A DNA stretch of 64,000 nt from an uncultured Porphyromonadaceae bacterium. GTDB lineage: Bacteria; Bacteroidota; Bacteroidia; Bacteroidales; Muribaculaceae. Below are positions 22,136-60,204 of the stretch, piece after piece. Made by a program: the position numbers and the translations under genes. Below the pieces are notes generated by a model. That model had not been told where the DNA came from, made no database searches, and worked only from the letters and a program-made list of their open reading frames with translations. Position 1 is the first letter of the stretch, and every line of letters begins with the position of its first letter. The stretch lies in contig UQLL01000001.1 of the NCBI GenBank assembly GCA_900541835.1, forward strand, positions 43,915 to 107,914. The letters are read 5' to 3'.

Positions 22136-23617
22136 TTATTTGAGAGTTGAAGGTTGAGAGTCGAGAATTGTCTCGGTCTCTGCCTTGACCTTGCGCGTCA
22201 GGAACATGACGAGGAAGGAGAGTGCGACGGCTACGCCTATGCCGATGGCGAGCCAGTAGTCGATGCCGACGCTAAACAGGGCCTGGGTGAGCAGGCCGAG
22301 TCCCTCGGGAGCGAAGAGTATGTAGCTTACGGTCACGACGGTCATGAACAGCGCAGGCACGAGCGATATGCCATAGAAGCGCTTGCGGGAGGCCAGCCAC
22401 ACGGTGATGGCCCACAGGGTGAAGACGCTCAGCGCCTGGTTACACCAGGCGAAGTAGCGCCAGAGCACGTCGTAGGGCAGCAGCATGATGATGAAGCAGA
22501 CGGCGAAGATGGGCAGCGACACGAGCACTCGGCTGATGACCTTCTTCTGCTTGATTCCGGAAAAGTCAGCGGCTATGAGTCGGGCGGAACGGAGTGCAGT
22601 ATCGCCGCTGGTGATGGGTGCGGCCACCACACCGAGGATGGCGAGAATGCCGCCGAAGGTGCCGAGCCAGGTGGTGCTGAGGTTGTTGACCAGCGTGGCG
22701 GGGGAACCGCCGTCGAGTGCCTCCTGTAGCTGCGTGTATCCGCCGGTGAAAGCCACGGCAGCGGCCGCCCATATCAGGGCTACTATGCCCTCGGTGATCA
22801 TGGCGCCGTAGAAGACGGGCCGGGCGTGCTTTTCGTTCTTGAGGCAACGGGCCATCATCGGGCTTTGCGTGGCGTGGAAGCCGCTGATGGCGCCGCAGGC
22901 TATCGACACGAACATCATCGGGAAGATGGGATTCGCCTCCGGGTCGGGCTTGTGGTTGGAGAACTGATGCCACAGCTCCGGCACCGTGTCGGAGTGTACG
23001 AACAGCATCGCCATGATTCCCACGGCCATGAAGAGCAGCGCGAAGCCGAACACGGGGTACAGCTTGCCGATGAGCTTGTCGATGGGCAGAAGCGTGGCAG
23101 CCATGTAGTAGACGAAGATGAGGACGATCCAGAAGAGGCGCGTCATGCTGTCGGGGGTTATCTTGGCCAACAGGTCGGCCGGGTTATAGACGAACACGGC
23201 TCCTACGAGTATCATCAGCAGCAGGGCGAAGATGCGCATGGTGAGCTTGACACCTCCACCGAGCTCGCGGCCCACGATCTCGGGCAGCGAGGCTCCGCCC
23301 ATGCGCAGCGACATCATGCCCGACATGAAGTCGTGGACGGCTCCGGCGAAGATGGTGCCGAAAACTATCCACAGGAACGCCGCAGGTCCGTACATGACGC
23401 CCATGATAGCGCCGAAGATGGGCCCCAGACCGGCAATGTTGAGAAACTGTATGAGGAAAATCTTCCAGGTGGGGAGCTCGACGTAGTCTACGCCGTCGGC
23501 CATGGTCTGGACGGGCGTATTGCGGGAGGGGTCTATGCCGACCACCTTGGCGGCAAACTTGCCGTAAACGAAATAGCCTGCTATGAGCAGTGCCAGGGAT
23601 ATGAGAAAAGTTATCAT
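22136..23617 (-). CDS. cstA: Carbon starvation protein A family transporter
   Basis: 493 aa polytopic membrane protein with CstA N-terminal conservation. Its last 9 codons and stop lie inside a TGAGAGTTGA-type repeat. Confidence 0.9.
   Translation of the reverse strand: MITFLISLALLIAGYFVYGKFAAKVVGIDPSRNTPVQTMADGVDYVELPTWKIFLIQFLNIAGLGPIFGAIMGVMYGPAAFLWIVFGTIFAGAVHDFMSGMMSLRMGGASLPEIVGRELGGGVKLTMRIFALLLMILVGAVFVYNPADLLAKITPDSMTRLFWIVLIFVYYMAATLLPIDKLIGKLYPVFGFALLFMAVGIMAMLFVHSDTVPELWHQFSNHKPDPEANPIFPMMFVSIACGAISGFHATQSPMMARCLKNEKHARPVFYGAMITEGIVALIWAAAAVAFTGGYTQLQEALDGGSPATLVNNLSTTWLGTFGGILAILGVVAAPITSGDTALRSARLIAADFSGIKQKKVISRVLVSLPIFAVCFIIMLLPYDVLWRYFAWCNQALSVFTLWAITVWLASRKRFYGISLVPALFMTVVTVSYILFAPEGLGLLTQALFSVGIDYWLAIGIGVAVALSFLVMFLTRKVKAETETILDSQPSTLK
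22138..22179. repeat. GAGAG-family repeat (TTTGAGAGTTGAAGGTTGAGAGTCGAGAATTGTCTCGGTCTC)
   Basis: Tandem TGAGAGT units plus an imperfect hairpin, overlapping the cstA 3' end. Confidence 0.6.
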
Positions 23618-23629
23618 TTTCGGTCAGTG

Positions 23630-23653
23630 GTAGGGACGCACCCTGGTGCGTCC
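23630..23653. repeat. REP-like palindrome GTAGGGACGCACC-CTG-GTGCGTCC
   Basis: Perfect 11-bp arms. First member of an inverted doublet. Confidence 0.85.
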
Positions 23654-58694: not shown

Positions 58695-58725
58695 TTCAAG
58701 TATAACGCTTGGAGCGCATATTTAT

Positions 58726-60204
58726 TTAAGCGGGAGCTGACTTTCTGCGATTGGGCAGGTTGAGGCCGAGGGTGTGTCGGCGGTTGAGGTGCATCAGGCG
58801 GAAAACCATCAACAGTGCGGCGACGTCGAACAGAGCGAAGAGGAGCATCGCCGGGCCATACTCCGTGGAGTCGCCCATCACCCATGCCACGCCCAGTGGA
58901 GTGAGGAAGAGTCCCCAGCCCTGGAGCCAGTAGAAGAGAGCGTAGGCGGAGCCGAGGGAGCGTTCTGGCGCCAGCCGCGGCAGCAACGGCCACAGCCCGG
59001 CTGACATCACCGCCGAGGCCACACCCAGCAGGAAGATGCCCACGTAGGCCACCCATAGATACGGGAGCGCAGGCAGCAGATAGGCGAACATGGCGTAGCA
59101 GGCAGCCATGCAGGCGCTTCCGAGGGCCATCAGCCAGAGCGCCTCACCCCTGAAATCGGGTATCATGCACACCGGCGGAGTGCACAGGGCGGCTACCAAC
59201 GGCAGCGACGCAAGCACTGTGGCAGCGGAGTCGGCCGACGTACCCAGGGCAGCCTGGAGCATCGCCACGGCATAGCGGTAGAAGGGTATCAGGGAAGCGT
59301 AGTAGCAGACGCAGATGGCCGCCAGCAGCCACAGCACACGGTTCTTCTCAGTGTTGCGGCAGAGGTCGAGGAGCGGAGAGCTGAAAGAATGGTGAGATCT
59401 GAGATCTGAGAGCTGAGAGTCTTTGCCGGAGGGTCGAGAGTTGCGGACGCAAGGCTGCAGGAACCCATATGCGATCCAGCAGATAAGGCCTATCAGCAGC
59501 ACCAGCACGCACCACCCGACAGGTCGCGCCACGCTGTATGCGCCCCAGTCGGCTATGCGGGGCGATGCCCATAGGGCCAGTGCCACCACCACGCGCGAAC
59601 CGGCCAACTGCACGCCCATGGCCACCGCCAGTTCCTTCCCCTTGAACCACAGAACCGTGGCGCGAGAGGCCGCGACCCCTGCCATCTCGATGCCGATGCC
59701 GAAGAGCATGAAACCGAAGGCCGATAGCTTTGCCGACGCGGGCATCCCGGCGCAAAAGGGGGTGATGTTCCACGCACGGTCGGGCAGGTTGAGCCACTCC
59801 CCTATCCAATGCGCAAAGCCTGAGACGGCAAATGCGTCGGTGAGGGCGTAGTAGTTTACGGCTCCTCCCGCTAACATCAGCATTCCGGAGAGGAGTCCGC
59901 AGCGGCGCACCCCGAGGCGGTCGATGAGCATGCCGGCGCACAGCAGCACGCAGCAGAAGACGTTCAGGAATGATTCGGCGCTGGAGTATCGGCTGTAGGC
60001 CATCAGCGACCACCCCTTGCTCTCAAGGGCAGTCTGGAGCGGCGACAAGGCGTATAGCAGCATATACCCGCCGGCGAGGGCGAGTATCAGCAGCGCCACC
60101 ACTCCCCAGCGCTTCCATGCCGACGTGTGCGGCGATGCCAATATCGGGCTTGTTTCCACGCTGCAAAGGTACACCCTTTCCGCCAAACGCGCAAACAGCG
60201 ACAA
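58726..60204 (-). CDS. MFS transporter
   Basis: 12 TM helices in a 6+6 arrangement. The central cytoplasmic loop contains a GAGAG-family repeat in-frame. Confidence 0.8.
   Translation of the reverse strand: MSLFARLAERVYLCSVETSPILASPHTSAWKRWGVVALLILALAGGYMLLYALSPLQTALESKGWSLMAYSRYSSAESFLNVFCCVLLCAGMLIDRLGVRRCGLLSGMLMLAGGAVNYYALTDAFAVSGFAHWIGEWLNLPDRAWNITPFCAGMPASAKLSAFGFMLFGIGIEMAGVAASRATVLWFKGKELAVAMGVQLAGSRVVVALALWASPRIADWGAYSVARPVGWCVLVLLIGLICWIAYGFLQPCVRNSRPSGKDSQLSDLRSHHSFSSPLLDLCRNTEKNRVLWLLAAICVCYYASLIPFYRYAVAMLQAALGTSADSAATVLASLPLVAALCTPPVCMIPDFRGEALWLMALGSACMAACYAMFAYLLPALPYLWVAYVGIFLLGVASAVMSAGLWPLLPRLAPERSLGSAYALFYWLQGWGLFLTPLGVAWVMGDSTEYGPAMLLFALFDVAALLMVFRLMHLNRRHTLGLNLPNRRKSAPA
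59377..59425. repeat. GAGAG-family repeat (GCTGAAAGAATGGTGAGATCTGAGATCTGAGAGCTGAGAGTC) inside the MFS coding sequence
   Basis: Encodes GKDSQLSDLRSHHSFSS in the TM6-TM7 loop on the minus strand. Confidence 0.55.

Follow-up and report, generated by a model that had tools for sequence, protein, structure and literature searches.

A Heptanucleotide Repeat Family at Gene Boundaries of a Human-Gut Muribaculaceae Bacterium

Results

Heptamer Arrays in the Window

The DNA considered here is a 64-kb stretch of contig UQLL01000001.1 (GenBank assembly GCA_900541835.1) from an uncultured Muribaculaceae bacterium of the human gut; it is 60.6% GC and is called the window throughout. Exact protein matches assign it to an abundant member of the family whose metagenome-assembled genomes are entered as Lepagella sp. 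Scattered through it are short tandem arrays of a seven-nucleotide unit, GAGAGYT (ARCTCTC on the opposite strand). The arrays form a real, lineage-specific family, which is a new example of the heptanucleotide repeats already described in bacteria and not a new kind of element. Nine clear loci lie between 18.4 and 59.5 kb, at 18.47, 19.47, 22.14, 31.76, 33.24-33.34, 35.03, 43.17-43.23, 51.57, and 59.36-59.45 kb. The genes confirmed by Pfam are purL, CstA, AhpC, LepA, TsaB, an FAD-dependent protein (the FAD protein below), a U32 peptidase, RmlA, GH53, PFK, EamA, DnaG, and an MFS transporter; gene calls on related contigs place the U32 stop codon at 34853 and the beginning of the FAD gene at 34856. 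The original prediction, drawn from the letters of the window, had described an interspersed family of such units at 22138-59425. All the array sites that it cited are found where it located them; two (18469 and 19464) fall outside that range and the remainder within it.

The arrays were scored by comparing each position with three phased GAGAGYT units, for a maximum of 21, with a main threshold of at least 17/21. Controls were 100 dinucleotide shuffles of the window and codon shuffles within genes. The loci are as follows.

S1, 18443-18494, plus strand: GTGAGAG TTGAGAA TTGAATA (18468-18494) downstream of purL; score 17/21; fold z = -2.0
S1 partner, 18446-18459: upstream array AATTCTG AATTTTG, which pairs with the S1 array
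S2, 19465-19484, plus strand: CTGAGAG TTGAGAC; score 17/21; no folding, z = +0.09
S3, 22133-22190, plus strand: TTGAGAG TTGAAGG TTGAGAG TCGAGAA; score 19/21; fold z = -1.9
S4, 31754-31826, plus strand: CTCAGAG TTGATAG TTCAGAG TCGGATG with a perfect inverted copy
S5, 33241-33336, plus strand: AGTTGAG array of 6.3 units (33241-33283) with an inverted partner (33299-33336); scores 20 and 19/21; fold z = -2.7
S6, 35029-35057, plus strand: CTGAGAG CTGAGAG CCGGGGGG TGAGAGT in the U32 peptidase gene; score 18/21
S7, 43169-43233, plus strand: GGCTGAGGGCTGAGAGAC with an imperfect inverted partner GTCTCTGTACTCGCAGCTCTCGGC; scores 15 and 17/21
S8, 51564-51590, plus strand: TTGAGAG TAGAG TTAAGAG TTTCG; score 15/21; fold z = -0.1
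S9, 59362-59449, plus strand: heptamer-like stretch in the MFS central loop; score 20/21; 3.7 copies by Tandem Repeats Finder (TRF); no folding, z = +1.6
L224, in 7 kb of further sequence of the same species, upstream of the window: perfect AGTCGGGAGTTGAGAGTTG / CAACTCTCAACTCCCGACT hairpin

The arrays of the window hold two to six degenerate units and have only the heptamer in common; the number of units, their variants (TTGAGAG, CTGAGAG, TTCAGAG, and TCTGAGA are all seen), the loops, and the flanks differ from site to site. TRF reports a period of 7 at 33241-33283, 35029-35043, and 59393-59418.

Enrichment and Position

The family is present far above expectation. Matches to GAGAGTTGAGAG with at most one mismatch number six, against 0.30 expected, and matches to CTGAGAGCTGAGAG with at most two mismatches number nine, against 0.94. 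Three phased units are found at 10 loci at or above 17/21, compared with a mean of 0.42 and a maximum of 3 in the dinucleotide shuffles, and at six loci at or above 18/21, compared with 0.02. Within coding sequences six loci reach 17/21; codon shuffling within genes yields 0.06, and codon usage is therefore not the cause of the arrays. Seven of the 10 loci fall in the 10.5% of the sequence that is intergenic or within the last 60 nucleotides (nt) of a gene (binomial p = 1.3 × 10^-5). The units thus occur above chance frequency and with a preference for gene ends. Two sites need qualification: S8, at 15/21, is below threshold and at chance level when taken alone, and 46458-46489 is the sole match at or above 17/21 that resembles chance; it encodes KKNNSLLSSLD, a segment conserved in an 89%-identical ortholog.

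S1, S2, S3, S5, and the L224 locus are flanked by genes in the same orientation. S2 follows immediately on the TAG stop of the open reading frame (ORF) at 18484-19464, within a 32-nt spacer preceding a murB-like gene. The minus strand of S3, which is the sense strand, encodes the CstA tail ...ILDSQPSTLK*; the array ends 13 nt upstream of the ahpC start, and its weak partner arm, TCTCGGTCTCTG, encodes AETET. Similarly, the minus strand of S5 encodes the last ~15 amino acids (aa) of the FAD protein, and the locus ends 1 nt upstream of the tsaB ATG. The sense strand of S6 reads CTCTCAG and gives the peptide PPGSQLSG. S7 occupies the divergent rmlA/GH53 spacer and S8, the weakest family member, the divergent PFK/EamA spacer. 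The core of S9 (59389-59418) reads on the minus strand TCTCAGC TCTCAGA TCTCAGA TCTCACC AT, or four heptamers and two bases. The L224 hairpin fills the whole 63-nt stop-to-start spacer between two co-oriented genes.

GAGAG is on the plus strand in all nine clear arrays, and the plus strand has 10 copies of TGAGAGT against one on the minus strand. A strand bias of this kind might be expected of a replication-strand-biased oligomer such as Chi or KOPS. However, three TGAGAGT units place TGA in all three frames, so that only ARCTCTC is possible on the sense strand inside ORFs and ORF tails. S3, S5, S6, and S9 are in minus-strand genes, S2 comes after the stop of a plus-strand gene, and the hairpin loci hold both orientations. 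The apparent plus-strand bias is accounted for by this stop-codon rule together with gene orientation, which explain the unpaired arrays whose gene context is defined (S2, S3, S6, and S9); S8, in a divergent spacer, is not assignable. Replication-strand bias was accordingly rejected as an explanation, the only minus-strand match that is not a hairpin partner being the conserved native coding sequence at 46458-46489. Moreover, Chi and KOPS occur as dispersed single words and do not form tandem arrays at the ends of genes. With chance and codon usage excluded by the shuffle controls, it is very improbable that any of these three sources produced the family.

Paired Arrays and Single Arrays

The arrays take two forms. 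S4, S5, and S7 are inverted pairs that fold, as do S3 and S1 more weakly (z near -2); the single arrays S2, S6, S8, and S9 do not fold, with z between -0.1 and +1.6. The most stable is S4, where a perfect hairpin had been described after lepA: this is a stem-loop of 21 bp with arms at 31770-31790 and 31799-31819, between the convergent lepA and GT25 genes, with a folding energy of -43.7 kcal/mol (z = -7.2). S7 folds on the plus strand with z = -2.85. The hairpin potential ascribed to the repeats as a group therefore holds at 31757, 33241, and 43168, less strongly at 18469 and 22138, and not at 19464, 35028, 51563, or 59377. The 8-nt loop of S4 (31791-31798) is reverse-complemented in two of 10 strains (L001 and L003), a flip-flop inversion across the 21-bp inverted repeat.

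It is conceivable that the hairpin subset serves as transcription terminators or mRNA-stabilizing modules. S4 is very stable and lies between convergent genes, S5, S7, S3, and S1 fold better than shuffled sequence, and the L224 hairpin takes up exactly the interval from one gene's stop to the start of the next. Nevertheless, a T-run follows none of the arrays: the sequence 3′ of the S4 stem is ACCTGAGGTTAT, and S7 (43169-43233), which lies outside the 18000-37900 range of the terminator scan, was judged by eye. Within that range the scan returned 12 matches against 11.3 expected, none of them at an array. S2, S6, S8, and S9 do not fold at all, and S3 and S5 lie in operon-like spacers of 9-23 nt, where termination would cut off the downstream gene. 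A terminator or stabilizer role is thus quite improbable even for the hairpins, and as a general reading, offered earlier as one alternative, terminator modules are not supported, half of the arrays having no fold. The Rfam 15 covariance models give no match at any array up to E = 1. The consensus used for sigma-70 promoters and terminators is uninformative for promoters of the Bacteroidota type.

Arrays Read into Proteins

Where arrays run into reading frames they encode the peptides that had been assigned to them, namely ...DSQPSTLK* in CstA, ...PESLSFQL* in the FAD protein, SQLSDLRS in the MFS transporter, and SQLSG in the U32 peptidase. An ortholog alignment had been proposed for detecting lineage-specific insertions, and it gives a different answer for each protein. 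In the MFS transporter the 10-aa segment SQLSDLRSHH is an in-frame insertion of 30 nt that only this species carries in an alignment with 12 homologs (99%-41% identity), all 12 of which lack it. The DNA of relatives likewise lacks the insertion in homologs down to 74% identity, and native GCTCTCC GCTCCTC adjoins the insert. In CstA the difference is small: the tail exceeds those of 16 orthologs by only 3-5 aa, and their L-[DEK]-P-Q tails are related to it. The U32 segment is not an insertion; it is a variable linker of nearly equal length in 14 homologs, which within the species has accumulated more substitutions than the surrounding sequence. The description of the family as interspersed at gene 3′ ends and in frame therefore stands for the arrays between genes, for the tails of CstA and the FAD protein, and for the loop of the MFS transporter, with U32 removed as an insertion.

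At 530 aa the FAD protein is longer than in two syntenic relatives (518 and 515 aa), because ~86 nt have been added at the FAD/tsaB junction. The added sequence consists of two opposed arrays and a loop. It supplies the last ~15 FAD codons, the stop, and a 23-nt spacer that ends one base before the tsaB ATG. Odd C-terminal extensions (+15 aa in the FAD protein, +3-5 aa in CstA) and the 10-aa MFS loop insertion can thus be explained as by-products of repeat growth.

A 655-aa protein, P0320, was considered as a CstA-AhpC fusion through the array and rejected; it is an internally duplicated CstA, probably an assembly artefact.

Stability within the Species and Turnover among Relatives

Ten metagenome contigs, 99.2%-100% identical to the window and spanning 22.5-43.2 kb, served as a strain set. 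No array changes length at sites 4, 5, or 6 among these strains; copy number is identical in all 10, unlike that of phase-variable contingency loci built on simple sequence repeats (SSRs). Members of the CstA, FAD, and U32 protein clusters differ by substitutions only, except for three CstA variants with a 2-aa insertion (KAEAETET) and one premature stop; the CstA tails hardly vary. The arrays are therefore not hypervariable contingency loci and are stable once fixed.

Relatives present a different picture. The contigs of the closest ones (U32 73%-76%, MFS 68%-74%, and CstA 82%-88% identical; 47%-51% GC) contain no GAGAGYT arrays. For the FAD protein, the relatives among the matches listed in a search of genome contigs are all at or below 68% identity. 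U32 orthologs are not adjacent to the FAD gene in the FAD-matching loci, and U32 homologs were gathered by protein search. In one relative (L102) the S5 array is absent and there is a 4-nt overlap between FAD and tsaB. In another (L101) S5 is replaced by four copies of AACATTG: the run AACATTC AAAACAC AACATTG AACATTG encodes the FAD tail and reaches the tsaB ATG. In a sister contig of 62% GC (L100), whose CstA is 93% identical, the CstA tail contains one AACTCTC in place of the three units of the window, and the cstA stop is followed by a different array, 5.7 copies of AATGAAC. Rapid turnover at orthologous sites is thus seen in the MFS loop, at FAD/tsaB in L101 and L102, and at cstA/ahpC in L097, L098, L100, and L102. 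Because the same junctions in relatives carry other heptamers or a single unit, local growth and turnover are favored over insertion of a foreign element.

The sister contig L100 terminates within its (AATGAAC)n array, at 1502-1541, directly after cstA, which suggests that such arrays break short-read assemblies.

Period-7 Arrays beyond the Window

Two further data sets place the family in a wider setting. The first is a Bacteroidota sample of 1.5 Mb (loci L011-L103), fetched for an unrelated reason, on which TRF was run. Period 7 accounts for 37 arrays of at least four copies; every other period gives at most three, except period 14 with five. The 37 arrays are spread over 17 loci from Prevotellaceae, Muribaculaceae, Tannerella, Chitinophaga, Balneolia, and others; many occupy stop-to-start spacers and some form inverted pairs. 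The second is a metagenome set of 0.75 Mb (loci L104-L223; at least 120 contigs, 30%-70% GC) obtained by scanning for TGAGAGYTGAGAGYTGAGAG. Arrays of three or more GAGAGYT units occur in at least three phyla, and exact protein matches name four of the metagenome contigs as Prevotella, another Bacteroidota, Rariglobus (Verrucomicrobiota), and Caldisericota.

Copy number is not distributed as a decay. Pure GAGAGYT arrays in the metagenome set peak at four to five units (81 of 127 arrays) and only 10 have three, compared with the two to six degenerate units of the window. Period-7 arrays of any unit peak at 4.x copies, or 30-35 nt, in both data sets, whereas periods 6, 8, 9, and 10 show a monotonic decay of array length. 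These results suggest that period-7 arrays of about four to five units are a general feature of intergenic DNA in Bacteroidota and of other phyla. An inverted partner is present within 150 nt in about one-fifth of arrays, with the purine arm first in 22 and second in 7.

Some members of the Bacteroidota sample depart from this size. Very long arrays take up entire spacers between genes in an uncultured Bacteroidales and a Prevotellaceae metagenome-assembled genome (L085, 2593-2961 and 11703-12080; L031, 17261-17575), with 52-54 copies of CTTCCGA and TACGCTT, and 18 and 27 copies of TAAGTAG and CTCATAA. Chitinophaga solisilvae (L071) has four inverted pairs, (AATTACG)×4.4 / (ATTCGTA)×4.4, 60-140 nt apart in successive intergenic spacers (7288-7431, 9852-9974, 14945-15090, and 17561-17776). 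This is the architecture of S5 built from a different, genome-specific unit.

The position of arrays relative to start codons bears on another possibility, that they are bound by a protein with affinity for single-stranded nucleic acid, for example ribosomal protein S1 or a cold-shock protein, and mark a post-transcriptional regulon, as has been proposed in print for TAACTGA repeats (PMC4679880). In its favor are the specificity of the unit, the placement of S3 and S5 at 1-13 nt upstream of start codons in the G-poor orientation, and a modal length of 30-35 nt, which could equal a protein footprint. Among the Bacteroidota arrays within 45 nt before a start codon, the sense strand is AACT-type in 11 of 23 and AGTT-type in none. 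This polarity is not reproduced for GAGAGYT across phyla, where pre-start arrays read GAGAG in 14 cases and CTCTC in 7. In the window, arrays occur in both orientations relative to transcripts and others are inside ORFs; S7 and S8 apparently lie upstream of candidate -7 boxes (TAACTTTG, as read from the sequence); and the adjacent genes have no common function. A predicted role as protein-binding sites is, on this evidence, distinctly unlikely for the family. A general rule of C-rich strands before starts and G-rich strands after stops was likewise upheld only in part: the pre-start half was not reproduced, and stop codons trivially account for part of the post-stop bias for GAGAGYT across phyla (41 versus 17).

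It is also possible, though unlikely, that the arrays spread as blocks, some dedicated process, be it a non-autonomous mobile element or templated insertion, generating fixed-unit segments of ~30-35 nt or copying them to new sites. Such block-wise spread would account for one unit at nine or more loci, for an MFS insertion whose 30 nt exactly equal the modal array size, for a copy number that peaks at four to five whatever the unit, with few three-unit arrays, and for the presence of GAGAGYT in Bacteroidota, Verrucomicrobiota, and Caldisericota. Against it, the arrays lack terminal inverted repeats, target duplications, and a conserved core; loops and flanks differ at each site; and no transposase is linked to them. 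Relatives carry single proto-units and native look-alike sequence at the same positions, and sister taxa carry different units at orthologous junctions. The suggestion of a second mobile-element family, one of three alternatives in the original prediction, is not borne out, since copies share nothing beyond the heptamer. By the same token the arrays do not qualify as miniature inverted-repeat transposable elements (MITEs) or other non-autonomous transposons, the S4, S5, and S7 loops and all flanks being unrelated.

Other Repeats and Motifs in the Window

A separate repeat resembling repetitive extragenic palindromes (REPs), GGACGCACCNNGGTGCGTCC, usually followed by CTAC, is often found as inverted pairs after genes. 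Its copies are as follows.

18368-18387, REP-like copy
18411-18430, REP-like copy
21595-21614, REP-like copy
23634-23653, REP-like copy
23683-23702, REP-like copy
28463-28482, REP-like copy
36648-36668, REP-like copy
44353-44373, REP-like copy
51651-51670, REP-like copy
56239-56258, REP-like copy, inside the DnaG reading frame

Heptamer arrays adjoin REP-like copies at 18.4, 23.66, and 51.6 kb. A 39-nt composite element, CCCTACRATCTGACCGAAATTYTGAATTTTGACACACCC, occurs twice in opposite orientation, at 18430-18468 (plus) and 60929-60967 (minus); it continues from the REP-like unit and contains a heptamer pair of its own, AATTYTG. The motif TTTCCTTTGCRATTGRCGC, at 5249-5267 and 18505-18523 with a similar copy at 19489-19510, is upstream of the genes just 3′ of S1 and S2 and could be a variant form of the -7 promoter box of Bacteroidota (TAnnTTTG). 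That box is clearly present at 14510, 25100, 28520, 43140, 45620, 51495, and 61130. At 19497-21323 a single ORF of 608 aa joins MurB domains (FAD_binding_4 and MurB_C) to a metallo-beta-lactamase-fold domain at its C terminus, which may reflect either a gene fusion or a missed stop.

Discussion

Origin and Persistence of the Arrays

The observations are probably best explained by local amplification at the DNA level, tolerated at gene edges and in protein loops and followed by decay, with paired arrays acting as RNA stem-loops. Slipped-strand repeats were among the alternatives raised at the outset, and of those three they fit best. Arrays would arise from a 7-nt proto-unit by replication slippage or template switching, as the literature has proposed, and would then be partly eroded by point mutation. 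They persist only where extra sequence is tolerated: in short intergenic spacers, in last codons, and in a protein surface loop or linker. Where opposite arrays lie side by side, as at the lepA end, FAD/tsaB, rmlA/GH53, and L224, the transcript would fold with the purine-rich arm first, and the resulting stem-loop would most likely be an intercistronic or 3′-end RNA structure. Single G-poor ARCTCTC runs before starts may instead serve as unstructured leader, in a phylum that lacks Shine-Dalgarno pairing.

Several points weigh against amplification by stepwise slippage as a complete account. It leaves unexplained that a single unit is found again and again, at nine or more places in 64 kb, that GAGAGYT arrays occur in at least three phyla, and that array lengths show a peak at four to five units (30-35 nt) in place of a monotonic decay. 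Together these suggest selection or a dedicated mechanism that generates or spreads the arrays. In addition, the C-rich polarity before starts (AACT 11, AGTT 0) does not carry over to GAGAGYT (GAGAG 14, CTCTC 7), and the bias toward a G-rich strand after stops follows in part, trivially, from stop codons.

Tentatively, arrays of any unit in several phyla might be built to ~4.5 units (30-35 nt) by a common cause, either a conserved protein with a ~32-nt footprint or a mechanism that writes blocks; this must be considered unlikely at present. If true, the published G-quadruplex explanation of a four-unit preference would not be general, GAGAGYT being unable to form a G-quadruplex, and the in-frame insertion of 30 nt in the MFS gene would exemplify the ~32-nt heptamer blocks written into gene boundaries.

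The family adds a common human-gut Muribaculaceae to the few lineages in which one heptamer unit has colonized gene boundaries. Annotators and assemblers should beware of array sites. In a culturable gut host, both the function of such repeats and their origin would become testable.

Comparison with Known Repeat Systems

Heptamer repeats of a comparable kind include the STRR family of cyanobacteria. The closest parallel in detail is the TAACTGA repeat of marine Beggiatoaceae, Cyanobacteria, and five Bacteroidetes (MacGregor 2015, PMC4679880). It occurs in sets of two to six, mostly a few nucleotides upstream of starts and sometimes overlapping ORF ends or placed at protein termini; near relatives that share the gene order lack it, and in Bacteroidetes other heptamers adjoin it (PMC4679880). 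MacGregor proposed that S1, cold-shock, or CsrA-like proteins bind these repeats (PMC4679880). GAGAGYT shares with TAACTGA tandem 7-nt units, the preference for one unit per genome, a mostly intergenic location with occasional in-frame copies at protein termini, arrays often near start codons or overlapping the end of the upstream ORF, and relatives of the same gene order that lack the repeats. It differs in the unit itself (GAGAGYT / ARCTCTC), in its 60% GC human-gut Muribaculaceae host, and in the degeneracy of its arrays. Roughly half of its loci are inverted stem-loop pairs, whereas only one indirect repeat was reported in the BOGUAY genome, and its forward unit, unlike TAACTGA, has no stop codons and so is able to extend ORFs.

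The GGGNATC heptamers of Xanthomonas and Nostoc lie between co-oriented ORFs, are stable, and prefer four units (Rehm et al. 2015, PMC4692102). Their G-rich strand is sense after stops and antisense before starts (PMC4692102), and Rehm et al. ascribed the four-unit preference to G-quadruplex formation (PMC4692102). The present arrays are similarly over-represented between co-oriented ORFs, with similar strand placement and stable loci. In contrast, GAGAGYT has no G-tracts, and a G-quadruplex therefore cannot explain it; a preference for four to five units is still seen for GAGAGYT and for arbitrary units. The 30-35-nt peak of arrays of any unit thus generalizes the preference observed for GGGNATC.

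Long SSRs with units of 5-11 nt, of which heptanucleotides are commonest, were surveyed by Mrazek et al. (2007), whose work as summarized in PMC4679880 gives as a possible reason that 7 nt matches the stretch held by the polymerase. According to that summary they agree with the present family in the prevalence of heptamers, the exclusion from coding DNA of units with lengths not divisible by 3, and a proposed origin by slippage. They differ in that the surveys counted long perfect arrays, those here being short and decayed, and in that Bacteroidota are not highlighted in the summarized account.

REPs, the bacterial interspersed mosaic elements (BIMEs) built from them, and MITEs are also short and interspersed; they lie between genes, are often palindromic, and are sometimes read into the ends of genes. 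The GAGAGYT family departs from them in that it lacks a conserved palindromic consensus, terminal inverted repeats, and target duplications alike. It has no fixed palindrome of the sort that characterizes REPs and BIMEs, an imperfect one of about 20-40 nt on which a RAYT transposase acts; the separate REP-like family of the window does have such a palindrome. What it does possess is a 7-nt head-to-tail period, recurrence at many loci, a bias toward non-coding DNA and ORF ends, and turnover at orthologous sites. Because these are the defining features of heptanucleotide arrays, and because the properties of MITEs, REPs, terminators, and contingency loci are not found, GAGAGYT is assigned to the heptanucleotide repeat class.

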